A DNA stretch of 64,000 nucleotides. It comes from Anaeromyxobacter sp. (GTDB lineage Bacteria > Myxococcota > Myxococcia > Myxococcales > Anaeromyxobacteraceae). Each line of letters opens with the position of its first letter. The first letter of the stretch is position 1. Position numbers and translations under genes: made by a program. The stretch is from the NCBI GenBank assembly GCA_049840735.1, contig JASGJN010000007.1, positions 192,001 through 256,000 of the forward strand, read 5' to 3'. Below, one piece after another: positions 16,301-63,042 of the stretch. Under the pieces are notes generated by a model, which saw only the letters and a program-made list of their open reading frames with translations, made no database searches and was not told where the DNA came from.

Positions 16301-16304
<4 letters not shown>
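15501..16304 (-). CDS. ABC-2 type permease (DrrB-like)
   Basis: Hydrophobic helices; [15 protein letters not shown] and NPVTHL motifs; overlaps the ATPase stop. Confidence 0.9.
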
Positions 16305-17263
<959 letters not shown>

Positions 17264-17436
17264 GGACGGCCTGTTCTGCCTCCGCTGGCGCCGCGCGTCG
17301 AGCGAATCGACTGCGGAGGGCCTGGCCGCCCCCGGCCGGGGAGGCATCGGACGTGGACCCGCACGGCAAAACGAGGAGCGCGGACCGCCTCACGGCGATC
17401 CGCGCCCGGATGCTGCTCAGCTGCTCGAAGAGGAGG

Positions 17437-44476: not shown

Positions 44477-44775
44477 GGTCCGCCTCCTTCCGCGCGACGG
44501 CGCGGCCTGGGCGCGGGGTTAGCGGCGGGAGCCGCGGCGGCCATGGTCCGCGCGGGGCCGCCCGGGTCGCTCCCCGAAGGGCCGCGGGCGGGCATGCGGG
44601 CGCCCGCTGGGGCTGCGGGGGTGGGTGGCCCGATGCCGCGGGCAGCCAAGGGCCTGAATAGACTCGGCACCCAGCCGTCGAGGGGGACGGCGCGCCTTGA
44701 CGGGCCCGGCCAAGCCTGCAATCTAGGCCCGCCCGCCGGCCCCGTCCTGGGCCAGAGGCCCGGAACTACCAGCGA

Positions 44776-46740
44776 ATGACGCGACTCGCACCCCTGCTCC
44801 TGGCGCTGCTCCTCCTCCCGACCGCCTCCCGGGCGGACACCTCCGAGGAGCTGACCATCCTCAGCTACCACGAGGTCTCCGACGCCAAGGACGCGCTGGA
44901 GGCGTCCTACGCGGTCACGCCGACCAACTTCCTGCGCCAGATGGACTGGCTGCGGAACCACGGCTACCGCTTCGTCGGCATCGACGACCTGGTGGCGGCG
45001 CGGCAGGGCAGGCGCCCGCTGCCGGACAAGGCGGTCCTGGTCACCTTCGACGACGCCTACCAGTCGGTCTACGACCACGCCTGGCCGGTGCTGAAGATGT
45101 TCCGCATCCCGGCGGTGGTGAACGTGGTGGGCTCGTGGCTGGAGACGCAGGGGACGCTCCAGTTCGACGGCAAGCCCACCGCCCGCAGCCGGCTGCTCTC
45201 CTGGGCCGAGCTGAAGGAGATGGTGGACAGCGGGCTGGTGGAGGTGGGCAGCCACAGCTTCGACCTGCACCAGGGCGTGCAGGGCAACCCGCAGGGCAAC
45301 CTGGAGCCGGCGGCCATCACGCGCCGATACCTGCCGGAGCAGAAGCGCTACGAGGACGAGGCCACCTACCGCAAGCGCGTGGAGGCGGACCTGGAGCGGA
45401 ACAGCGCGCTCATCAAGCGGCGCACCGGCAAGGCGCCGCGGGTGGTGGCCTGGCCCTACGGGCGCTACAACCAGACCACGCGCGAGCTGGCCGAGCGGCT
45501 GGGGATGCCCATCGGCCTGACGCTGGACGACGGCGCCAACATGCCCGGGACGCCGCTGTGGGGGCTGCGGCGGATCCTGGTGGAGGGCGGCTTCCGGCTC
45601 TGGGACCTGGAGCGCGAGATCACCATCCGCAACCAGAACCTGTCGGACAACGACCGGCCGGCCAAGGTGATGCACGTCGATCTGGACTACCTGTACGACC
45701 CCGATCCGGCCCAGACCGATCGCAACCTGGGCCACCTGCTGGACCGGATCTGGTTCATGGGCGTGAACACGGTCTACCTGCAGGCCTTCGCGGATCCGGA
45801 CGGCAACGGGGCCGCCGACGCGGTCTACTTCCCCTGCCGGCGCATGCCCACCCGCGCCGACCTGTTCAACCGGGTGGCCTGGCAGATCCGCACCCGCACC
45901 AACGTCCGGCGCCTCTACGCCTGGATGCCGGTGCTGGCCTGGCAGCTGCCCGCCGGCGATCCGGCCGCGGGGGACAAGGTGGTGGCCGCCGCCGGCGGCG
46001 ACTCGGCGGGGCGGGTGGACATGGGCTACCCGCGCCTCTCGCCCTTCTCGCCGCGCGCGCGGCAGGCCGTCCGGGAGATCTACGAGGACCTGGCCCGCAC
46101 CTCGATGTTCGACGGCCTCCTCTTCCACGACGACCTGACCCTCTCCGACCACGAGGACGCCAGCAGCTTCGGGCTGGCGGCCTACAAGGCCTGGGGGCTG
46201 CCCGGCTCGGTGGAGGAGATCCGCCGGAGCGACGACCTGCTGGGGCGGTGGACCATCTTCAAGATCAACGCGCTCGACGACCTGGCCCTGGAGCTCGCGG
46301 CGGTGGTCCGGGCCCAGCAGCCGGCGCTGGTGGTGGGGCGGAACCTGTACGCGCGGGTGGTGCTCAACCCCAGGGCCGAGGTCTGGTACGCGCAGTCCCT
46401 CGACAACTCGCTGGCCCGCTACGACTTCACCGCCATCATGGCCATGCCGTACATGGAGAACGCCGCCGACCCGGCCGCCTTCTTCCACGAGCTGGCGGAC
46501 GCGGTGAACGACCGCCCCGGCGCCATGAAGAAGGTCGTCTTCGAGCTGCAGGCCGTGGACTGGCGCGGCGGCAACAAGCCCGTGCCCTCGGAGGAGCTGG
46601 CCGCCACCATCCGCAGCCTCTACGGGATGGGCGTCCAGCACGTGGGGTACTATCCGGACGTCATGTTCGACAACCACCCGGCGCCGGCGGTGATGAAGCC
46701 GGTGCTGGATCTCAAGCCCAACGCCTTCGGGACGCGCTGA
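44776..46740 (+). CDS. pgaB: Poly-beta-1,6-GlcNAc N-deacetylase / glycoside hydrolase PgaB
   Basis: LSYHEV, VTFDDAY, GSHSFDLH, WPYG, HVDLDY, VYLQAFADPDG, RADLFNRVAWQ, FELQ, GYYPD. Confidence 0.95.
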   Translation: MTRLAPLLLALLLLPTASRADTSEELTILSYHEVSDAKDALEASYAVTPTNFLRQMDWLRNHGYRFVGIDDLVAARQGRRPLPDKAVLVTFDDAYQSVYDHAWPVLKMFRIPAVVNVVGSWLETQGTLQFDGKPTARSRLLSWAELKEMVDSGLVEVGSHSFDLHQGVQGNPQGNLEPAAITRRYLPEQKRYEDEATYRKRVEADLERNSALIKRRTGKAPRVVAWPYGRYNQTTRELAERLGMPIGLTLDDGANMPGTPLWGLRRILVEGGFRLWDLEREITIRNQNLSDNDRPAKVMHVDLDYLYDPDPAQTDRNLGHLLDRIWFMGVNTVYLQAFADPDGNGAADAVYFPCRRMPTRADLFNRVAWQIRTRTNVRRLYAWMPVLAWQLPAGDPAAGDKVVAAAGGDSAGRVDMGYPRLSPFSPRARQAVREIYEDLARTSMFDGLLFHDDLTLSDHEDASSFGLAAYKAWGLPGSVEEIRRSDDLLGRWTIFKINALDDLALELAAVVRAQQPALVVGRNLYARVVLNPRAEVWYAQSLDNSLARYDFTAIMAMPYMENAADPAAFFHELADAVNDRPGAMKKVVFELQAVDWRGGNKPVPSEELAATIRSLYGMGVQHVGYYPDVMFDNHPAPAVMKPVLDLKPNAFGTR

Positions 46741-46749
46741 GAGGCCCCG

Positions 46750-48015
46750 GTGACCGCGCCACTCGACGCCTTCTGGAGCGTGCTGCTGGCGTTCGTCTTC
46801 TGGTACCCGCTGTTCATGTCGTACCTGTGGATGCTCGGGGCCGCGCTGTTCTACTGGCGGTTCGAGCGCCCGGAGCCGGCCTGGGATCACCCGCCCGAGC
46901 TGGCCCGCTCGCCGCCCATCTCCGTGCTGGTCCCCCTCTACAACGAGGAGGAGAACGCGGAGGAGACGCTGACGCAGGCGCTGGCGCTGGACTACCCGGA
47001 GTTCGAGGTCATCGCCGTCAACGACGGCAGCAAGGACGGGACCGGGGCGGTCATCGACCGGCTGGCCGCCCTGCACCCCCGGCTCAAGGCCGTGCACCTG
47101 GCGCAGAACCAGGGCAAGGCCATGGGGCTCCAGGCCGCCTGCCTCCTGGCGCGCCACGAGCTCTTGCTCTGCATCGACGGGGACGCGCTCATCGACCGGC
47201 ACGCCGCCCGGTGGATGGTCCGCCACTTCGTGGAGGACCCGCACGTGGCGGCCGTGACCGGCAACCCGCGCATCCGCAACCGCTCCACGCTCATCGGGCG
47301 GGTGCAGGTGGGCGAGTTCTCGTCGATCGTGGGGATCATCAAGCGGGCGCAGCGCATCTTCGGCCGCATCTTCACCGTCAGCGGCGTGATCGGCGCCTTC
47401 CGCAAGGCGGCCATCCACGACGTGGGCTACTGGAGCCCGGACGTGATGACCGAGGACATCGACATCACCTGGAAGCTCCACCGGGCCGGGTGGGAGGTGC
47501 GGTTCGAGCCGCGGGCGCTGATCTGGATCCTCATGCCCGAGACGCTGCGCGGGCTCTGGAAGCAGCGGCTCCGCTGGGCCATGGGCGGCGCGCAGGTGCT
47601 GCTCAAGAACCTGCACCTGCTGCTCCACCCGCGGCGCAGCTACCTCTGGCCGCTCCTGGTGGAGATGGTGGCCAGCCTGGCCTGGGCCTACGCCATGCTG
47701 CTCCTGACGCTGGCCTGGGTGGTCTCGCCGTTCCTCCCCGCCGGCGCCGCGCCGGTGACCAGCTCGCCGCTGAGCCCGGCCGGCGGCGGGATGATGCTGG
47801 GCGCCACCTGCCTGCTCCAGTTCGTCTTCAGCTGGTGGCTGGACAGCCGCTACGACCGCGGGCTGGGCCGGAACCTGTTCTGGATGATCTGGTACCCGGT
47901 GGTCTTCTGGATCATCAACAGCGTCTCGACCGTCTGGGCGCTGCCCAAGGTGCTGGTGCGGGGCCGCGGCGCCCGGGCGCGCTGGGTGAGCCCGGATCGC
48001 GGCTTCAGGCCGTGA
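46750..48015 (+). CDS. pgaC: Poly-beta-1,6-GlcNAc synthase PgaC (GT2)
   Basis: NDGSKD, NQGKA, IDGDA, TEDIDI, KQRLRW, WVSPDRG. Confidence 0.95.
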   Translation: MTAPLDAFWSVLLAFVFWYPLFMSYLWMLGAALFYWRFERPEPAWDHPPELARSPPISVLVPLYNEEENAEETLTQALALDYPEFEVIAVNDGSKDGTGAVIDRLAALHPRLKAVHLAQNQGKAMGLQAACLLARHELLLCIDGDALIDRHAARWMVRHFVEDPHVAAVTGNPRIRNRSTLIGRVQVGEFSSIVGIIKRAQRIFGRIFTVSGVIGAFRKAAIHDVGYWSPDVMTEDIDITWKLHRAGWEVRFEPRALIWILMPETLRGLWKQRLRWAMGGAQVLLKNLHLLLHPRRSYLWPLLVEMVASLAWAYAMLLLTLAWVVSPFLPAGAAPVTSSPLSPAGGGMMLGATCLLQFVFSWWLDSRYDRGLGRNLFWMIWYPVVFWIINSVSTVWALPKVLVRGRGARARWVSPDRGFRP

Positions 48016-48220
48016 TCCGCGTGTAGGTGGCGCACCTCCAGGCGGCATCTCGCCGCCTGGCCGGGGAGCTAGGTCCTCGGGTCCGGCCGGTGCGACACAA
48101 GGCCGCATTCTTGGGCCCGGCGTGAACATCTACAAGGGCCCGCCCGTCCAGCCGGCAGAGCGCAACCCCCACGCCCCCCTGGGCGAAGGGCCAGGCAGGG
48201 CGCGCAGCGAGGTAGACGCA

Positions 48221-48685
48221 GTGAGCGACACCCTCATCATCGACGCGCGGCACCGGCTGCGCTGGCACCAGCGCCTCGTCTCCGACGCGTCCACCGCCAC
48301 GCTGTGGGGCGTCTGGCTGTGGCTGTGGTCGCCCGTGGTCCGGTCGCTCGAGTGGGCCTCGCACCTGGGACACCGCGGCTACCCGTTCATGCTGAAGTGG
48401 CTCTCCGCCGGGCCGGTGACCGACCTCGACCACGCGGCGGTGCTGCTGGCCGGGACCTCCGGGACGCTGCTGGTCTGGAAGGGGCTGGCCGCCCAGCGGC
48501 CCAGCCTCCCGCCGCCGTGCTCCGAGCACGACTACGCCGGCCACTTCGGCGTGGCCATGGAGCAGCTGCGGGCCGCCCAGGGCGCCTCGGTCTGCGTGGT
48601 GCACCACGACGAGAGCGGCCGGATCGTGCGCCTGGAGTGCCGCGCCTCCGCCTCCGCCTCCGCAGCCGCGCAGGCCGCCGCGTAG
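48221..48685 (+). CDS. pgaD: PNAG biosynthesis protein PgaD
   Basis: LIIDARH start after GAGG; two TM segments; YAGHFGV..VVHHDESGRI C-terminus; follows pgaC. Confidence 0.75.
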   Translation: MSDTLIIDARHRLRWHQRLVSDASTATLWGVWLWLWSPVVRSLEWASHLGHRGYPFMLKWLSAGPVTDLDHAAVLLAGTSGTLLVWKGLAAQRPSLPPPCSEHDYAGHFGVAMEQLRAAQGASVCVVHHDESGRIVRLECRASASASAAAQAAA

Positions 48686-52967: not shown

Positions 52968-53672
52968 TCAGCTCGGCGGGTTCTTCCGCTTCTTCTTCCG
53001 CTTCAGCGCCGCCCGGCGGCGCTTCGCCCACGCGTCCGTGCCGATGTACGTCGCCCGCACCAGGTCCTCGCGCCGCTCCTCGGCCTGGGCCTTCCGCCGC
53101 TGCTTCGCCTTCCCCTCCTGATCGGCGCACAGCGCCTGGTACTTCTTCCGGCGCGTCACGTCCGTCTTCCCCAGCGCCAGATACTCCGGCAGGTCGTCGA
53201 TGAGCGGGTGCCGCTCGCCGTACGCGTAGTGCCGGTGGCTCGAGTACGCGTAGTCCTTGGCGCTCCTCACCATGCCGGCCATCACCGGGTTGCGGTCCCC
53301 GTAGCCCGACACGAGCAGCGGCGCCTCGCCCCCCGTCTCCACCTGCCCGGAGTAGAGCCGCTCCATGACCACCTGCCCGCAGCGCTCCGTCTGCTCGTTG
53401 TACCAGCGCGCGAACACGCTGTTCACGTCGCGCCAGAAGCCGCTGAACGCCGCCTGGCCGCGCGTGGCCTTGAGCTGCACGTGCACGTGCGTGGTCATGA
53501 TGCAGAAGGAGTGGATGAGGATGCCGTACTTGCCCTTGTACTTGGCTAGCAGCGACAGGTAGAGCTCCGGCGCCCCCGCCAGCTCGAAGATCCGCGAGTG
53601 GTTATGGGCCTGCCAGGTGCAGTGATGCACCGTGCCCTCGCCCACCAGCCATCTTCTCGCGGTCCGCCCCAC
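52968..53672 (-). mobile_element. REP-associated tyrosine transposase (RAYT, IS200/IS605 HUH superfamily)
   Basis: VHHCT, FCIMTTHVH (HUH), YGDRNPVMAGMV..YAYSS (catalytic Tyr and NPxxAG motif); no tnpB adjacent. Confidence 0.85.
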
Positions 53673-53686
53673 GGCCAGGCGCAGAG

Positions 53687-53701
53687 GCAAGCCGCGTGCC
53701 G
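53687..53701 (-). promoter_or_regulatory. Candidate sigma-54 (-24/-12) promoter immediately upstream of RAYT
   Basis: Minus strand CGGCACGCGGCTTGC matches TGGCACG-N4-TTGC with correct spacing. Confidence 0.5.
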
Positions 53702-55238: not shown

Positions 55239-55680
55239 ATGCTGGGCCGCCTGCTCCGCTCCGCGGTGGTGACGCTGGCCGGCGCCCCCGCGCCGCGGGT
55301 GCGCGGCGTGGAGCGCGTCCGCGCCGCCGGCCTGCGCGCGCTGCTCATGGCCACGCTGGCCGGCCGGCCGCTCGACGAGGTGCTGGCCCTCCTGGACGCC
55401 GCCCCGGCGACCGGGGAGGACGTCCGCATCCCCCGGGCGCTGCGCCGCTGGCCAACCACCTGCCTCTACCGCTCGCTCGCCGGCTACGCCCGCCTCCGGG
55501 CGGTGGGTGAGGACGTCCGGTTCGTGATAGGAATCGCCGCCGTGGACGGCGATCTCGCCGGGCACGCCTGGCTCGAGCGGGCCGGCGAACCGCTCGGCGA
55601 GCCGGAAGATCCGCGCCGGCGCTACGCCGTCGCGTACACGCACCCGCCGCGCCCGTCCCCGGAGGTCCCGGTGCTCCCAG
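55239..55680 (+). CDS. Lasso peptide B2-type transglutaminase-like leader peptidase (no in-frame stop; possibly fused to the RRE)
   Basis: TTCLYRSL..RFVIGI..GHAWLE Cys-His motif typical of Transglut_core3/B2 proteins. Confidence 0.85.
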
Positions 55681-55683
55681 CCA

Positions 55684-55989
55684 CCCAGGCCCCGCCCCAG
55701 CCCCGACGTGCTCCTGACCGAGCTGGCCGACGGCACGGGGGTGCTGCTGCACCTCCGCACCAAGTTCTATTACGCGCTCAACGCCACCGGCGTGGTGGTC
55801 TGGAAGCTGCTCGCCTCGGGCGAGGCGGCCACCCTCGAGGCGCTGGCCGCCGCCGTGGTCGCGCGCTTCCAGGGTGCCGAGGAGGCGCGGGCCCGCGCCG
55901 ACGTCTCGACGCTCCTGGCCGAGCTGCAGGACGAGGGGCTGCTCCTGCCGGCCGCGCCGGCCTCCGCCGCACCGGGCGAGGCGAGGTAG
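55684..55989 (+). CDS. PqqD family RiPP recognition element (RRE)
   Basis: PRPSPDVLLTELADGTGVLLHLRTKFYYALNATGVVVWKLL..ADVSTLLAELQDEGLL, a typical RRE pattern; start uncertain (55671-55708). Confidence 0.9.
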   Translation, partial: PRPRPSPDVLLTELADGTGVLLHLRTKFYYALNATGVVVWKLLASGEAATLEALAAAVVARFQGAEEARARADVSTLLAELQDEGLLLPAAPASAAPGEAR

Positions 55990-55992
55990 TCG

Positions 55993-57108
55993 GTGCCCAC
56001 CGCCACCCCGCCGGGCACCGCCGCCGCGCGACGCCTGGTGACGGCGTGCCTGGTGCGCTCCCACGCCCTGGAGCGCCTGGCGGAGGGCGGCGACTGGGAG
56101 GGCGCGCTCTCCCTGGCCAGCGCCCACGCCGTGGCCGAGCCGCTGGCCGACGTGGCCCTGGCGCTCCCGCCCGCGCCGTGCCGCCGGCGCTCCGCGAGCG
56201 GCTCTCCGAGCTGAGCGCGGCGGCGGCCGCCAAGAACGCGCTGCTGCTCAGCGACCTGGCGCGGGTCCAGGCGACGCTGCGGGCGGCGGGCGTCGCCTCC
56301 CGTGGCGATGAAGGGGACGGCGCTGCTGGCGTACGGCCACTACCGCTCGCCGGCGGCGCGCCACCTCTCCGACGTCGACCTGCTGGTTCGCCCGCGCGAC
56401 GTCCCGGCCGCGGTTGCGGCGCTCCGGGCCGCCGGCCTGGCCCCGCCCTCCGGCGCGCTCCCGGCCCTCGACGGCCGCTCCGACGCTCTGGGCCGCAACC
56501 CCGGCGATGCCCACCTGAAGCCGGTGGAGACCTGGTCCGGCGGGCTCCTGGAGCTGCACGATCGGCTGCCCGGCGGAGGGCCGCCGGCGGATGCGCTGAT
56601 CGCGGCCGCGGTCGAGGTGCGCTGGTCAGGCCAGCGCGTGGACGTCCCGGCGCTGGTCGACCTGGCCGGCATGCTCTGCCGCCACGCGCTGGTGGCCCAC
56701 GCCGAGGAGCCGCGCCTGCGGGCGCGCCACGTCGCCAATCTGGCGGCGCTCGCGCCGGCCGGCGTGGAGTGGGCCGCCGTGGGCCGGCGCTACGGCCGCG
56801 CCGTGGTGCGAGAGTCGCTGGCGCTGCTGGAGGCGGCCCGCGCCGAGGCGGAGGCCGGCACGCCGGCGCCGGCCCACCTGGCGCTGCTCGCGCCGGTGGG
56901 CGCAACCTACCGCGCCCGCGCCCGCTGGCGGCGGCTCCTCTCGCCGAGCGCGCCCTCGCTGCCGGCGCTCGCCCGCGCCCTCTTCCCGGCCCCGGGGTAC
57001 ATGCGCGCGCGCTACGGGCTTCCGGCCGACGCGCCCTGGTCGGCCATCTGGCACCTCTACCCGCGCCGCCTCCTCTCCGGCGCCTTCCGCTTCCTGGCGG
57101 GGCGATGA
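55993..57108 (+). CDS. Nucleotidyltransferase family protein (NTP_transf_5-like); frameshifts at ~56175 and ~56300
   Basis: DWEGALSLASAHAV; KNALLL; MKGTALL..YRSPAARHLSDVDLLVRP; LELH. Confidence 0.82.
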
Positions 57109-58067
57109 GGCGGTCCCTCCACGGGCTCGAGGTGCAGGTGACCGGCTCGCTCCCGGCCGCGCTGGTCGGTGAGCTGCTGGGCGGCTTCCCCGAGGGCGAC
57201 CCGGGGCGCCCGCCGGACCTGGTCATGGCGCTGGAGCCGGCGCGAGGCGCGCCTCCCCCCGGGCTCGAGCCGGTGTTCTGGTACGAGGGGCTGCGGGCCT
57301 ACCGCGACGCCGGCGGGGTGTGGCTGGCGCACGGCGACTCGACGGCCCGGCTCACGCAGGGCGGCGCGCGGATCGAGGTCGGGGTCGGCGCCGACGGTCA
57401 GCGTGGCGAGCACCTCTTCCAGCACCTGCTGGTCTTCACCGCGCTCCTGCGCGCCCTGTCGACCCGCGGCCTGCACCACCTCCACGCGGCAGGCCTGGTC
57501 CTGCCCACCGGGCGCACGGTGCTGGTCACCGGGACGGCCGGCTCGGGCAAGACCACGCTGGCGCTGGCGCTGCTCGAGGCCGGGCTCGGGTTCCTCGGCG
57601 ACGACGTGGTGCTGGTGGCCGAGCGCGCCGGCGCGCCGGCGCTGCTCGCGTTCCCGCGCACCTTCCACGTCGGCCCGGCCACCGCAGCGGCCAGCTCGGC
57701 CCGGGCGGCCCTGGTGGGCGCGCTGTACGGCGCGACCGACAAGCGCGAGCTCGACGCCGCCCGCGCCTTTCCTGGCCAGGCCCGCACCGCCGCCGCCGCG
57801 GCCGCGCTGGTCCTGCTCCCCGCGGTGACCGAGGCGGCGACGACCACGGTGGACCGCTGCTCGGGCGCTGACGCCCTGGTGGCGCTGCTCGAGTCGAGCG
57901 CCTACCTGGCGGTTGACGAGGAGCCGGTTGTGCGCGCCCGTGTCGCACTCCTGGCGGGGCTGGTGAGCGGTGCCCTCGCGTATCGGGTCCGTCTCGGCAG
58001 GGACATTCTGGAAACCCCTATGCAGGTGGCCAGAACGCTGTTGACGATATCCCCCGAACGAGGGTGA
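57105..58067 (+). CDS. HPr-kinase-like (HprK-related) Ser/Thr kinase
   Basis: LHAAGL, Walker A GTAGSGKTT, FLGDD, AFPR; ATGA overlap with the nucleotidyltransferase stop. Confidence 0.85.
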   Translation: MRRSLHGLEVQVTGSLPAALVGELLGGFPEGDPGRPPDLVMALEPARGAPPPGLEPVFWYEGLRAYRDAGGVWLAHGDSTARLTQGGARIEVGVGADGQRGEHLFQHLLVFTALLRALSTRGLHHLHAAGLVLPTGRTVLVTGTAGSGKTTLALALLEAGLGFLGDDVVLVAERAGAPALLAFPRTFHVGPATAAASSARAALVGALYGATDKRELDAARAFPGQARTAAAAAALVLLPAVTEAATTTVDRCSGADALVALLESSAYLAVDEEPVVRARVALLAGLVSGALAYRVRLGRDILETPMQVARTLLTISPERG

Positions 58068-58194: not shown

Positions 58195-60600
58195 ATGCTC
58201 AGTTCCACGCGGCCGTCCTGGCTTCGACTCACGGTGATGTTCGGCGCCGCACTCGCACTCTCGGTAGGGTGCGCCAAGCAGCCGCCCAAGCAAGTGGTCC
58301 TGGCCGAGTTCCAGGGCACGGTCGATCCCACCACGGGCACGCTCAGCTTCGGGACCGACGACGCGGGCCCCCGGATGGTGGCGGTGATGGCGGGCTTCCC
58401 CACCATCGACAAGAACGGCCACGCCGGGACCGCGGCGCTGCCGAACAGCCTCGAGCTGGTGACGGAGCAGACCAGCACCTCGGCGGCGGACTGCGGCCGC
58501 CCCAACGCGTTCTGCGGCAAGGTGACGATCCGTTCCTTCTACGCCGGCAGCGAGATCCACAACCTGTACGTCCAGATCATCTCGATGACGCCCGGAACCG
58601 GCGCGCTCGGCTTCTCGAACTCGGCTCACCCGGCGATGGATCCCGTCGACGGGACGGCGGTCAACGCGAACTTCGGCCTCTGGGCCTACCCGGCGCTGCT
58701 GGACGGCGGCAACAACGATGGCACCTTCAGCGGCACCAGCACCGCCGGCGCCAACGCGGCCACGCGCTGGTGGTACTTCGACAACCTCACGCCGCAGCCG
58801 CACACGTTCGTGGCGCGCGTCATCGGCGAGCTCGTCACCCCTGCGGCGGACGCGACCGGCCTGGAGGCCACCTGCGGCTACGACGCGGCGGGCGCGAACG
58901 GGACCCGCCGGCAGCTGGACACCACCACCGACTGCGGCGAGTGCGGCCGGACCTCGGAGGGCACCGCCTGCAACTACGCGGTGACCGGCGGCTACCGCGA
59001 CAGCTCCTCGGCCGTCGAGTGGAGCGTGGGCGAGGGCGCGCTGTGCGAGATCGCCACCGCCTGCGACACCGCCGATGCCGCCGGCTATGTCTGCCGCGAC
59101 CTCGCGACGGACACCGCCAACTGCGGCGCCTGCGGGGTGACCTGCGGCGCCGGAGAGGTCTGCAACAGCGGCGTGTGCGAGGTGGCCTGCGCGGTGGGCC
59201 AGTCCGTGTGCAATAGCGCCTGCTGCCCCGCCGGTTCAGACTGCCTGTCCGGCACCTGCGTCCTGAGCGACGTCACCCAGTTCTCTGTCGGCACCGACCA
59301 CGCCTGCGCCATCACCACGGATTCACGGCTCTCCGCGATCACCTGGGTGGACAACGGCGCGGGGACGCCCACCACCACCAACAACGTGGTCTGCTGGGGC
59401 CAGAACCACCTCTCGAACTGGGGCAACCCGGTCTGGACCCGGGCGCTGGCCGCGCCGGAGCTCTTCCCCAACTTCGGGCAGTTCCACCTCAACGACGACA
59501 TGCGCGACGTGGCCAGCGGCTATCTCGACTCGCTGGCCTTCAGCGCAACCCCCGACATCTCGGTCCGCCGCTGGGGCAGCATGGCGGTGCTCGACTTCCA
59601 GAACGTGGTGGATGGCTGGCACACCCGCGGCACCAAGTCCGCCATCGGCGCGCACCATGGCTGCTCGCTGTTCAACTACCTCATCGGCGACGAGCTCATC
59701 GGCCCCAACCCCGAGGGCATCTACTGCTGGGGAGACAACGACGCCGGGCAGATCGGCAACGACGGCGATCCAGCGCTGTTCTGTGGCCCGGACGGGAACG
59801 GTATCATCGGCCAGGACCGGAGCACGATCTGCTTCCCGCTCTCGCTGACCGGCTTGAACTGGATCACCGGGGCCAGCGGCAGCGGGCTGACCGGGACGGA
59901 CATCGCTGCGGGCGGCGACACCACCTGCGTGGTCGAGGCGGCGCCAGGCTGTGCGCCGGACTTCGGTCAGTGCCACGGCGGCGGCCAAACCGCCGGCCGC
60001 GTGGCCTGCTGGGGCGACAACACCGACGGCAAGGCCGGCCAGGCCGCCGCCGGTCCGTTCTTCGCGCCGGTCGAGCTGCCCATCATCGACGGCACCACCC
60101 ACGTGGCGACGCAGGTCGCGGTCGGTGAGCACCACGGCGTGGCGCGGCTCTCCAGCGGCGCGCTCGCCTTCTGGGGGCGCAACGCCGAGGGCGAGCACGG
60201 CGACGGCAGCACCACCTCCACGGCCGGCCAGGTCGACATCGTCACCCCGGCCGTGCCCGCCGTCCAGGTCGCCGCCGGCGCCGACTTCACCTGCTACCTG
60301 GGCACCGACACCAACGTGTACTGCGCCGGCGCCAACGCCTATGGCCAGCTCGGCAACGGCACCACCGACCCGAGCACCGTGTTCGTCCAAGTGATCGGCC
60401 TCGGCGGCATCACCGCCATCAGCGCCGGCGGTGTGGGTCCTCCGGGCGGCCCGAACTACGGCTCCGCCTGCGCGCTCGACGGAGACGGCATCGTCTACTG
60501 CTGGGGCAACAACACGCAGGGCCAGCTCGGCCGCGGCGACACGACCAACAGCTCGCTCGCTGCGCCGGTCCAGGTCCCGTCCGTCCCCCCTCTCCCTTGA
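58195..60600 (+). CDS. Large lipoprotein with myxobacterial Cys-rich repeats and RCC1/BLIP-II-like beta-propeller
   Basis: Lipobox SVGC; DLATDTANCGACGVTC Cys-rich module; repeated HAC/HTC..CWGxNxxGQLG RCC1 repeats. Confidence 0.85.
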   Translation: MLSSTRPSWLRLTVMFGAALALSVGCAKQPPKQVVLAEFQGTVDPTTGTLSFGTDDAGPRMVAVMAGFPTIDKNGHAGTAALPNSLELVTEQTSTSAADCGRPNAFCGKVTIRSFYAGSEIHNLYVQIISMTPGTGALGFSNSAHPAMDPVDGTAVNANFGLWAYPALLDGGNNDGTFSGTSTAGANAATRWWYFDNLTPQPHTFVARVIGELVTPAADATGLEATCGYDAAGANGTRRQLDTTTDCGECGRTSEGTACNYAVTGGYRDSSSAVEWSVGEGALCEIATACDTADAAGYVCRDLATDTANCGACGVTCGAGEVCNSGVCEVACAVGQSVCNSACCPAGSDCLSGTCVLSDVTQFSVGTDHACAITTDSRLSAITWVDNGAGTPTTTNNVVCWGQNHLSNWGNPVWTRALAAPELFPNFGQFHLNDDMRDVASGYLDSLAFSATPDISVRRWGSMAVLDFQNVVDGWHTRGTKSAIGAHHGCSLFNYLIGDELIGPNPEGIYCWGDNDAGQIGNDGDPALFCGPDGNGIIGQDRSTICFPLSLTGLNWITGASGSGLTGTDIAAGGDTTCVVEAAPGCAPDFGQCHGGGQTAGRVACWGDNTDGKAGQAAAGPFFAPVELPIIDGTTHVATQVAVGEHHGVARLSSGALAFWGRNAEGEHGDGSTTSTAGQVDIVTPAVPAVQVAAGADFTCYLGTDTNVYCAGANAYGQLGNGTTDPSTVFVQVIGLGGITAISAGGVGPPGGPNYGSACALDGDGIVYCWGNNTQGQLGRGDTTNSSLAAPVQVPSVPPLP

Positions 60601-60632: not shown

Positions 60633-60815
60633 ATGCGTGATGACCAGCAGGGCCGCCCCGAAGTGCCGGCGCACGCCGACCAGCGCCCGGCCTACGAGCC
60701 GCCGCGCATCGTGAAGCGGCGCTCGCTCACCCGCGTCACCGGCCAGGTGACCGGCACGACGCCGGGCGGAAACGGCACCACCGCCACCGGCCAGGACCTC
60801 ACCGGAGGCGGGTAA
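60633..60815 (+). CDS. Putative RiPP precursor peptide (60 aa; lasso-type leader, Thr/Gly-rich core)
   Basis: YEPPRIVKRRSLTRVTG fits YxxPxL-xxx-(G)-xxxxx-T-x spacing; lies co-oriented in an RRE/B2/rSAM cluster. Confidence 0.75.
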   Translation: MRDDQQGRPEVPAHADQRPAYEPPRIVKRRSLTRVTGQVTGTTPGGNGTTATGQDLTGGG

Positions 60816-60819
60816 GCGC

Positions 60820-61977
60820 TTGCGCCTCGCTCCCCTGCTGGCGGGCGTGCTGGCCCTCGCCGCCTGCCGCAGCGGCTCCAGCGCACCGCCGCCATGCGGC
60901 GAGCTGGGTGAGGCGTGCTGCGCCACAGGCGAGGCCTGCGGCACGGACCTCCGCTGCGACGCCGGCATCTGCCAGCCGTGCGGCGCGAGCGGCCAGGCCT
61001 GCTGCACCACCGGCGCTGCTTGCGGCGCCAGCCTGAACTGCGTCGCGTCGAGCTGCGAGCCCTGCGGCACCCAGGGGCTGGCCTGCTGCACCACCGGCCT
61101 CGCCTGCGGCGCGGGCCTGGAGTGTGCCGAGTCCACCTGCCTGGACGTCTGCCGGCTGGACAAGCCGGGGATCACCTGGCTGGCGTTCACCCACGTGAGC
61201 GGCGGCAACTACGACGTCGATCTGGTGCACGACGACGGCACCTGCCGCGTCCCCGCGGTGGCCGGCGCGGCCACCGACAACTTCCCCGCCTTCAGCCCGC
61301 CCGACCTGGGGCTGCTGGTCTTCTCCAGCACCCGCGGCGGCGCGCCTGGCCTCTACACCCGCGATCTCGCTGCGGGCACGGAGCAGGGCGTCCCGGTGGT
61401 GGGCGTCACCGCCACGGCACCTCGCTACTCACCCGACGGCATCTGGATCGCCTTCGAGGGCAAGGCGACGAGCGCCACGCGCACCGACGTCTACCGGGTG
61501 CTGCGGGTCGGCGGACAACCGATGGCGCTCACCGGGGCGCCGGGCAACAGCGCCGGTCCGGTCTACTCGCCCGACGGCAGCACCGTCTACTTGGTCTCCA
61601 ACCGCGCCGGCGCCTACCAGGTCTACGCCGTGGCCGCCGACGGAGGCACCGCCACGCTGGTCTCCGGGACCAGCGGCATCCAGGGCCGGCCCGCGCTCTC
61701 GCCCGACGGCACCCAGCTCGCGTTCACCCGCATCAACGCCTCCAGCGTGGCCGAGGTGGCGGTGAAGGATCTGGTCGGCGGCGGCGTGCGGGTGGTCTCG
61801 GCGCAGGGCGACGCCGATCCCTGCTTCGACGCCACCGGCGCCCGCCTGGCCGTGAGCAGCTCGCGCGGTGGCGACCACGCCATCTGGATCCTCGACGCCA
61901 GCGACGGCGGCAACGCGGTGCGCGTCACCACGCCGTCGGCCGGCGAGATCGACGGCCAGCCGGCCTTCAGGCCCTAG
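60820..61977 (+). CDS. Lipoprotein with three 28-aa 6-Cys repeats and a TolB-like PD40 beta-propeller
   Basis: Lipobox LAAC; PCGxxGxACC repeats at 60892-61143; PxxSPDG repeats. Confidence 0.85.
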   Translation: MRLAPLLAGVLALAACRSGSSAPPPCGELGEACCATGEACGTDLRCDAGICQPCGASGQACCTTGAACGASLNCVASSCEPCGTQGLACCTTGLACGAGLECAESTCLDVCRLDKPGITWLAFTHVSGGNYDVDLVHDDGTCRVPAVAGAATDNFPAFSPPDLGLLVFSSTRGGAPGLYTRDLAAGTEQGVPVVGVTATAPRYSPDGIWIAFEGKATSATRTDVYRVLRVGGQPMALTGAPGNSAGPVYSPDGSTVYLVSNRAGAYQVYAVAADGGTATLVSGTSGIQGRPALSPDGTQLAFTRINASSVAEVAVKDLVGGGVRVVSAQGDADPCFDATGARLAVSSSRGGDHAIWILDASDGGNAVRVTTPSAGEIDGQPAFRP

Positions 61978-61985
61978 GTCACCCC

Positions 61986-63042
61986 ATGTCGTGCAAATCG
62001 GGTCGTCTTCCACGTCACCGACCGCTGCCACCTGGACTGCGTCCACTGCCTGCGCGATCCGGCGAAGAAGCCGCTCGACGTCCCGCCCGAGCTGGTCGCG
62101 AAGGTCACGCGGCGGGCGCACCAGCTCTACGGCACGTCGCACGTCGGCCTGACCGGCGGCGAGCCGGTGCTGCACCCCGGCCTGGCCGGGATCCTGGACG
62201 CGATCGTGGCCGAGGGGTGCACCTGGCACGTGGTCACGAGCGGCGGTCACTTCGAGCGGCTCACCGCGCTCCTCGACCAGGATCCGCGCCGCCGCGAGGC
62301 GCTCACGGCCATCAACTTCAGCCTCGACGGACCGCGCGAGGAGGTGCACGACGCCATCCGCGGCCCGGGCGCCTTCCGGGCGGTCATGGCCGCCATGGCC
62401 CGCTGTCAGGCCGCCCACATCCCGTTCTCGGTCCAGACCGCGCTGAACGCGCTCAACGCCGACACGCTGGAGGAGCTGGGCATGGCGGTGGCGCACCTGG
62501 GCGCGAGCCAGCTGATGGTCGCCATGACCCAGCCGACGGGCACGCCTCGCGACCAGGCCCTGGCCCTGCCGCGCGGCGCCTGGGCCGGCGTCCGCGACAG
62601 GGCCGTCCGGCTGGCGGACACGCTCCGCATGCCCGTGGTGCTGTCCGAGGGCTTCCCGGAGACCACCCGGCTCCACGTCTGTGGCCCCTGGCGCCTCGAG
62701 ACCCTCCACGTCGATCCGCACGGCCGGCTCTCGATGTGCTGCCAGCTCTCGGGCACGCCGGGCGAGGACGTGGACGTGGTGGCCGACCTGGCCGAGTGCG
62801 ACCTGGCGGTGGCGGTGGAGCGGCTGCTGGGCCTGGTCCAGGCGCAGCAGCGCCGGCGCCTGGCCGAGATCACCGCCGGCCCAGGGGACGCCTGGGACGC
62901 CTTCCCCTGCAACACCTGCCTGCGCAGCCTTGGCAAGCCGCACTGGACCGACGCCGGCGCGGGCGGCCCGCAGGCCCGGCGCGAGCGGTTCGGCGTGGAG
63001 GTGCGCTGGCCGCTGCCGTCGCCCACGCCCGGCAAGCGCTGA
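61986..63042 (+). CDS. Radical SAM enzyme with SPASM/Twitch-like C-terminus; +1 frameshift at ~61995
   Basis: Frame upstream of the called ORF reads NRVVFHVTDRCHLDCVHC (CxxxCxxC, 62026-62049)..LTGGEP; FSLDG..HDAIRG; C-terminal C..HVDPHGRLSMCC..FPCNTC. Confidence 0.9.

Follow-up and report, generated by a model that had tools for sequence, protein, structure and literature searches.

A candidate phosphopeptide precursor with a lasso-type leader, tied to lipoprotein genes in Myxococcota

Described systems and the make-up of the cassette

In the linear polyphosphorylated peptide (LPP) system of Bacillota (lppA-K-B-S-D-N; Popov et al. 2026, PMC13381572), the precursor motif YxxPxVLxHQxIxFETxxS places the phosphorylated Ser3 at Tyr+18, and the leader is cut, by a protease other than B2, directly after the Thr that corresponds to Thr(-2). 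LppN gave no product in that study, the LPP nucleotidyltransferase has no assigned reaction, and the biological role of LPPs and of kinase-bearing lasso peptides is stated there to be unknown. The Bsf lasso cluster of Bradymonas sediminis (Duan et al. 2023, PMC10368454) encodes a kinase, BsfK, that phosphorylates Ser3 (Tyr+19), also takes Thr3 as a substrate and leaves T2, S10 and T11 unmodified, and in pseudomycoidin PsmN is required for the hexose on the phosphate (PMC6993621). Lasso leaders are cleaved according to a T-2 rule (PMC10885120).

Within the window—the whole stretch of 64,000 nucleotides of Anaeromyxobacter sp. DNA that was analysed—a same-strand cassette runs in the order B2 peptidase, RRE, nucleotidyltransferase, HprK-like kinase, lipoprotein, precursor, TolB-like lipoprotein and radical SAM enzyme (Table 1). 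It matches lasso peptides in the leader residues Y-17, P-14, L/I-12 and T-2, in the RRE (B1) and in the Cys/His of B2, whereas the macrolactam synthetase (C) and an Asp or Glu at core positions 7-9 are missing. With the LPP system the family shares the YxxP leader, RRE, HprK-like kinase, NTP transferase, absence of a cyclase, variable core, Thr at Tyr+15 and Ser/Thr at Tyr+18 (Tyr+19 in the window copy). LPP clusters, however, have a SpI-type (archaeal signal peptidase) enzyme in place of the B2 cysteine peptidase and an MsbA-like exporter where the myxobacterial family has none conserved; the optional radical SAM enzyme, the ND and TolB-like lipoproteins and the Myxococcota hosts are features of the latter, and the main text of PMC13381572 contains no mention of myxococc, radical SAM or lipoprotein. 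The Bsf cluster likewise shares B1, B2, kinase and nucleotidyltransferase, and its kinase target at core position 3 (Tyr+19), where Thr is accepted, is the position of Thr40 in the window peptide; it differs in its cyclase, Gly1-Asp8 ring, Ile(-2) and ABC transporter. Clusters of the pseudomycoidin/paeninodin type (PsmK, PsmN; PMC6993621) have an HprK-like kinase and a nucleotidyltransferase of an uncharacterised family in common with the cassette, but yield a true lasso that is modified at its C-terminal Ser. Judged by gene content, the family is neither a lasso peptide, since it has no cyclase and no ring acid, nor an LPP as defined, since SpI peptidase and MsbA exporter are absent; by analogy, it most likely functions in the manner of an LPP, with B2 as its peptidase. 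A literature search covering mainly open-access papers returned no description of the peptide family (PMC10028931 and PMC11117315 had no bearing on it), and the LPP and Bsf supplements may list related clusters.

Table 1. Features of the cassette, in window coordinates
Feature	Position	Strand	Remark
Lasso B2-type peptidase, then PqqD/RRE	55239..55989	+	two frames here, probably assembly indel
NTP_transf_5 nucleotidyltransferase, DxD intact	55993..57108	+	split over three frames in assembly
HprK-like kinase, P-loop and DD motif intact	57105..58067	+	
Lipoprotein: signal peptide with lipobox-like Cys, ND, Cys-rich linker, RCC1-type propeller	58195..60600	+	
ND, N-terminal domain of ~180 aa, all-beta, no Pfam family	58276..58842	+	
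Precursor peptide gene, 60 aa	60633..60815	+	translation, family profile, codon-position variability
Conserved leader motif Tyr(-17) to Gly(-1): predicted RRE-binding YxxPxI, basic KRR, Thr(-2)	60693..60743	+	
Predicted 23-aa linear core	60744..60812	+	cleavage site inferred from lasso T-2 rule
Thr40 = core position 3, predicted single phospho-acceptor	60750..60752	+	aligned with family hydrophobic-[ST]-G motif
TolB-like (PD40) beta-propeller lipoprotein, Cys-rich N-terminal part	60820..61977	+	
Radical SAM enzyme, twitch-like C-terminal domain, five conserved Cys	61986..63042	+	likely ATG out of frame with remainder in assembly

The B2 peptidase scores above the cut-off of NF033537, and the PqqD/RRE gene is present in a single copy in the window's genome. 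Of 48 distinct B2 loci, 19 have the two in one frame with the peptidase leading (the type of the window's family; examples are L030, L040 and L272-L278) and an internal Met kept in many linkers, whereas 29 have them as separate genes. Across related loci the catalytic residues are invariant: B2 Cys and His in 49/49 each, kinase Lys and DD in 50/50 and nucleotidyltransferase DxD in 25/25. The cassette is conserved in Anaeromyxobacteraceae, Polyangiaceae, Sandaracinaceae and Bradymonadales records, with its components in shuffled order. A PF00733 cyclase search gave six matches in the genome, none of them on the window's contig, and no lasso cyclase was found in the peptide-bearing loci among L030-L204. 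ABC motifs occur in 14 of 62 related loci (duplicates included); there is no ABC ATPase in 54-64 kb of the window, the nearest lying at 16304-17389, and the genome's matches to S24 (2) and S26 (3) peptidases are all on other contigs. The TIGRFAM systems SynChlorMet, HprK-rel-A/B and GeoRSP also combine a PqqD-like protein, an HprK-like kinase and a radical SAM enzyme, but scores were far under their cut-offs (ScmF 64 of 400, ScmD 18.9 of 100 and HprK_rel_A 32.3 of 200 bits), placing the cassette outside the SynChlorMet and HprK-rel class; for 'SynChlorMet' the literature search found no paper.

Several variants were seen among related loci. L290 and L291 are cassettes without a radical SAM gene and with two RRE copies each; L247, L248 and L250, from genomes related to these, encode cores with Cys-Pro-rich tails; and in L057 (2388-8705) a second set of RRE, radical SAM and kinase genes adjoins the cassette on the opposite strand.

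The precursor family and its conserved core residue

A sequence-only reading had proposed that the ORF between the two lipoprotein genes is a real precursor with a lasso-type leader. Its 60-residue translation and sequence description proved correct, and the same cassette encodes an RRE and a B2 peptidase whose Cys/His are intact, which agrees with the proposal. The leader residues Tyr21, Pro24, Ile26, Arg30 and Thr36 fall at Y-17, P-14, I-12, R-8 and T-2, and the 23-residue core contains seven Thr and eight Gly, including four x-T-G units, with neither Cys nor aromatic residues. With PGG at core positions 7-9 and no cyclase in the cassette, the view that this core cannot form a lasso also stands. 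GC content of the ORF by codon position 1/2/3 is 0.75/0.62/0.92, and differences per site among 59 relatives (0.32/0.23/0.53) follow a protein-coding pattern. While a loose leader pattern matched the whole genome 15 times, the family profile matched once (E 4e-14), at a site ~4.6 kb from the genome's only PqqD/RRE gene. We infer from these sequence features that the ORF is a genuine member of an undescribed myxobacterial peptide family predicted to use lasso-type leader handling. It has no family match in NCBIfam or Pfam, nor do 14 of 16 relatives tested, the other two giving weak sub-threshold matches; in 54.5-64 kb of the window, neither a sigma-70 promoter nor a plus-strand terminator pattern was found. 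Two further readings were rejected. One took the ORF for a frameshifted beginning of the TolB-like gene, but codon bias keeps to the frame up to the stop and relatives end alike; the other assumed a second precursor in the genome, where the profile has a single match.

Conservation of the ORF had been named beforehand as a test of its reality, and a profile built from 54 sequences, searched against 1.84 billion representatives at E 0.001, retrieved 281 relatives as clusters at 50% clustering; the residue counts that follow cover the 151 matches listed (150 plus P0003) of these ~281. Among the matches listed, the leader is highly uniform, with Tyr-17 and Pro-14 in all 151, Arg-8 in 136, Thr-2 in 146 and Leu-1 in 145. 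The leader had previously been called an exact lasso leader apart from Arg in place of Gly; the register holds at Y-17, P-14, I-12 and T-2, but Arg at -8 is normal in the family (Gly in two of those listed), so that the leader is better described as a family-specific variant. Downstream, Ser or Thr occupies Tyr+18 (core +2) in 138 of the matches listed (the background at later core positions is 0.216), and core +2 or +3 in 144, leaving seven with neither; because the profile itself includes the core, the Tyr+18 count is partly circular. In the set of 56 peptides taken mostly from radical SAM loci and excluding the four divergent rows L033, L076, L081 and L177, the corresponding counts were 53/56 at +2 and 56/56 at +2 or +3, and across relatives the Ser at Tyr+18 is encoded by both AGY and TCN codons. 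Gly follows at +3 in 105 and at +5 in 120 of the 151 listed, and the remaining core is low-complexity, variable and rich in Gly, Ser, Ala and Thr. On this sequence evidence, the only core feature that the family conserves is one Ser/Thr, placed 18 residues downstream of the leader Tyr.

The window peptide departs from its relatives at -1 (Gly for Leu; Gly is found there in one of the 151 listed) and at +1 (Gln for Phe). Members with a residue other than Leu at -1 mostly have one residue inserted before the hydrophobic-[ST]-G motif (P0107, P0118, P0123, P0131 and P0147), as does the window peptide, and with this insertion Thr40 (Tyr+19) would be its conserved hydroxyl. The earlier suggestion that the Thr residues serve as substrates of the kinase and nucleotidyltransferase therefore survives for a hydroxyl residue acted on by the kinase but not for seven Thr, as only one Ser/Thr is conserved; a Thr-rich tail as the family signature was rejected, at least five core Thr being present in three of the 151 listed. 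Other core features are also infrequent among these matches: Asp/Glu at core 7-9 in 20, Cys in seven and a C-terminal Ser/Thr in eight. Sactipeptides and ranthipeptides require a conserved core Cys, which the window core does not have. Triceptides and other aromatic-crosslink RiPPs carry an invariant aromatic donor in the core, likewise missing here. The statement that the core contains no aromatic residue is thus right for the window peptide, but 96 of the 151 listed relatives have an aromatic at core positions 1-3, so that an aromatic crosslink may occur in some of them.

The radical SAM enzyme and the lipoproteins

The predicted model of the radical SAM enzyme (pLDDT 89.7) has SuiB as its nearest fold (Z 25.3, rmsd 3.3, 286 aligned), followed by SkfB (23.5), anSME (22.7) and BlsE (22.3). 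Its best sequence match is PqqE, with identities of 12-21% to SPASM/twitch fold relatives and scores under every NCBIfam cut-off, and the fold shared with SuiB, SkfB, anSME, PqqE and BlsE does not by itself give the reaction. Epipeptides and proteusins are modified by a radical SAM epimerase, and the likeness to EpeE (Z 18.3) is below that to SuiB, SkfB and anSME. Three C-terminal Cys are invariant in 83/83 sequences and CxxC is found in 80/83; this C-terminal Cys set presumably has a parallel in oxidising enzymes like BtrN, whose twitch cluster is fully ligated, and a profile of the twitch domain gave chance-level matches only in the PDB.

Orthologs of this enzyme occur in 15 of 92 family genomes, and also in named Anaeromyxobacter, Polyangiaceae, Sandaracinaceae and Bradymonadales records. 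In most Polyangiaceae-type loci the gene adjoins the peptide gene, and it is the next gene after the peptide in 37 of 78 distinct peptide genes, a count biased by loci that were found via the radical SAM gene; in two genomes, G032 and G091, the peptide lies beside it and apart from the other enzymes. Yet nine of the 24 genomes that carry both peptide and lipoprotein have no ortholog. A renewed profile search of four to five of these nine, four of them 98-99% complete, gave none or weak N-terminal matches. Six of the cassettes without the gene form one kinase clade (100/99) and G064 stands separately (kinase tree, midpoint root), and most such cassettes retain the core Ser/Thr. Its absence from these nine genomes indicates that the enzyme is optional tailoring and not the defining chemistry of the system. 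Distant orthologs were also seen in Pyrinomonadaceae, Polyangia and Entotheonella (L081:14-172, L177:8758-8916, L178, L076:8829-8993 and L080), in loci with kinase, RRE and nucleotidyltransferase genes and different short precursors, perhaps of sister families; L080, a record with N gaps, yielded no precursor. In G056, a radical SAM gene (L035:4362-5288) lies near a second PqqD and, by eye, an S24/S26-like peptidase gene, in a genome with seven PqqD matches.

The sequence-only reading had not linked the peptide to the lipoproteins. Presence of the peptide and of ND largely coincides among the 92 family genomes, with both in 24, the peptide alone in one (a weak, different peptide), ND alone in one (a 3-kb contig, beside B2 and nucleotidyltransferase genes) and neither in 66; related, non-independent genomes are included in these co-occurrence counts, and the ND profile (A3, 48 sequences) was drawn partly from the same loci as the peptides. 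Copy numbers of peptide and ND rise together within one genus (7/11, 6/7, 3/5 and 3/4), and 14 of 15 peptide copies without an enzyme in the fetched stretch adjoin an ND gene. In a phylum sample of 301 genomes, all 17 peptide-positive genomes have ND, and of six ND-only genomes two have a diverged peptide beside ND and two have very short contigs; the remaining two showed no peptide in the stretch fetched. Exceptions include six ND genes in four genomes without an adjoining peptide and many Polyangiaceae-type cassettes with no ND found in the fetched flanks. The window's genome has one copy each of ND, peptide and RRE, all three within the cassette. These patterns tie the peptide gene, at the level of sequence and gene neighbourhood, to ND lipoproteins with variable, adhesin-like C-termini.

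The domains after ND are interchangeable—RCC1 and Vgb-like propellers, Ig/Fn3, DUF1554, NIDO and phosphoesterase—with a Pfam match in the C-terminal parts of 15 of 30 ND lipoproteins scanned. Where a genome has several peptide copies, these are nearly identical, and the C-terminal domains of the neighbouring lipoproteins are quite different. ND itself belongs to no Pfam family (four single weak matches among 48 members) and had neither a PDB sequence match nor a Foldseek match at E 0.001. Atlas matches were to unnamed clusters (0.87-0.91, low recognition), and a wide fold search returned the white spot syndrome virus envelope proteins VP37, VP24, VP26 and VP28 at Z 7.7-9.0, the next row being at 6.1; this modelled likeness to viral envelope beta-barrels, near the level of common matches, may be taken as a weak fold hint. 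ND begins and ends with F-[TSE]-G strands that resemble the core start, and a complex prediction of ND with peptide residues 21-60 (score 0.00, no controls folded) speaks neither for nor against an interaction.

A proposed pathway and its alternatives

On balance, we favour a reading in which the window ORF encodes the precursor for a lasso-derived phosphopeptide pathway that has no cyclase; by analogy, the product of this pathway is most likely a linear peptide phosphorylated at one Ser or Thr. Very probably, the RRE would bind YxxPxI and present the peptide. The HprK-like kinase is then likely to (poly)phosphorylate a single hydroxyl residue whose spacing from the leader is constant, here Thr40, and B2 would, with only a little less confidence, cut two residues after Thr36 and free the linear Gly-rich core. 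Whether the nucleotidyltransferase would add a sugar or a nucleotide to the phosphate we regard as evenly balanced. Single-site phosphorylation, B2 cleavage and a phosphate decoration like that of pseudomycoidin are suggested by the LPP and Bsf spacings together with the intact kinase, peptidase and nucleotidyltransferase motifs, and the decoration is less sure because the LPP nucleotidyltransferase gave no product in its study. Tentatively, the radical SAM enzyme, where present, might tailor the modified residue or its appendage, most likely by two-electron oxidation. That the product is a dedicated partner of ND lipoproteins, with about one peptide gene per lipoprotein gene, and not a free antibiotic has, in our view, just under an even chance; the lack of a conserved exporter counts against it, as a cytoplasmic peptide must reach the lipoprotein. 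As an LPP-like cyclase-less phosphopeptide, the product may have a role in surface-protein assembly or binding. It is more doubtful whether lasso-derived RiPP machinery might serve myxobacterial surface protein display; its peptide, phospho-glycosylated or nucleotidylated, would then be an obligatory partner of the adhesin-like ND lipoproteins, as their tag, anchor or assembly strand, and the radical SAM enzyme would act on the phosphorylated residue.

The same chemistry could instead lead to a diffusible signal or antagonistic peptide, the usual role of RiPPs, with the ND and TolB-like lipoproteins as receptors or immunity proteins. Cores that vary between lineages, a beta-propeller lipoprotein in most Anaeromyxobacteraceae cassettes and a patchy distribution, with the peptide in 25 of 92 family genomes, are all compatible with such a product; but near-identical peptides beside divergent lipoprotein C-termini are the reverse of cognate receptor or immunity pairs, the exporter is again not conserved, and we consider it unlikely. 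The export problem disappears if the peptide is a trans-acting adaptor, its leader recruiting RRE, kinase, nucleotidyltransferase and peptidase while it is the ND lipoproteins that are actually modified, or that accept a B2 transamidation, before export. This would account for one peptide gene per lipoprotein gene and draws on the transglutaminase-like fold of B2 and the F-[TSE]-G strands of ND; nevertheless, that likeness may be a mere beta-strand pattern, the core Ser/Thr lies at the spacing where LppK and BsfK modify the peptide itself, and transamidation by lasso B2 is not described in the portion of the literature covered, all of which makes an adaptor distinctly unlikely.

We likewise hold as very unlikely the earlier proposal that many Thr are phosphorylated or nucleotidylated while the defining reaction (epimerisation, formation of a Thr ether or an aliphatic crosslink) falls to the radical SAM enzyme. 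It takes support from the x-T-G units, from the frequent position of the radical SAM gene next to the peptide, including the two genomes that keep the pair away from the other enzymes, and from nearest folds (SuiB, SkfB and anSME) that modify peptides; Thr richness, however, is not conserved, and the cassettes of genomes without the ortholog mostly keep their Ser/Thr. Highly improbable, finally, is that the family is real and the window copy a decaying cassette, as frame breaks in B2-RRE, the nucleotidyltransferase and the radical SAM start, and the rare Gly at -1, might suggest. The assembly is rich in indels—frame splits affect seven of the 17 conserved genes tested, including housekeeping genes—so that we read the breaks in the cassette as assembly indels, and the catalytic motifs are intact.

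With this family come a candidate partner protein, one predicted site of modification and natural versions with and without radical SAM, along with an uncharacterised radical SAM subfamily that has a defined short predicted substrate. Cultured carriers of the cassette include Anaeromyxobacter oryzae (L072) and Polyangium fumosum (L068), and the lipoprotein link, if physical, would mean that RiPP enzymes are put to a new use.

The surrounding DNA adds several minor observations. Results from other parts of this genome that depend on reading frames should be treated with caution. A frame-broken ORF on the minus strand (52968-53700), immediately upstream of the cassette, has, by eye, the look of a REP-associated (Y1) transposase. 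About 6.5 kb upstream lie pgaB-C-D-like genes (polysaccharide deacetylase/GHL13, GT2 and PgaD; 44701-48685), and the related cassettes L071, L079, L276 and L278 are also near polysaccharide genes, as are LPP clusters.
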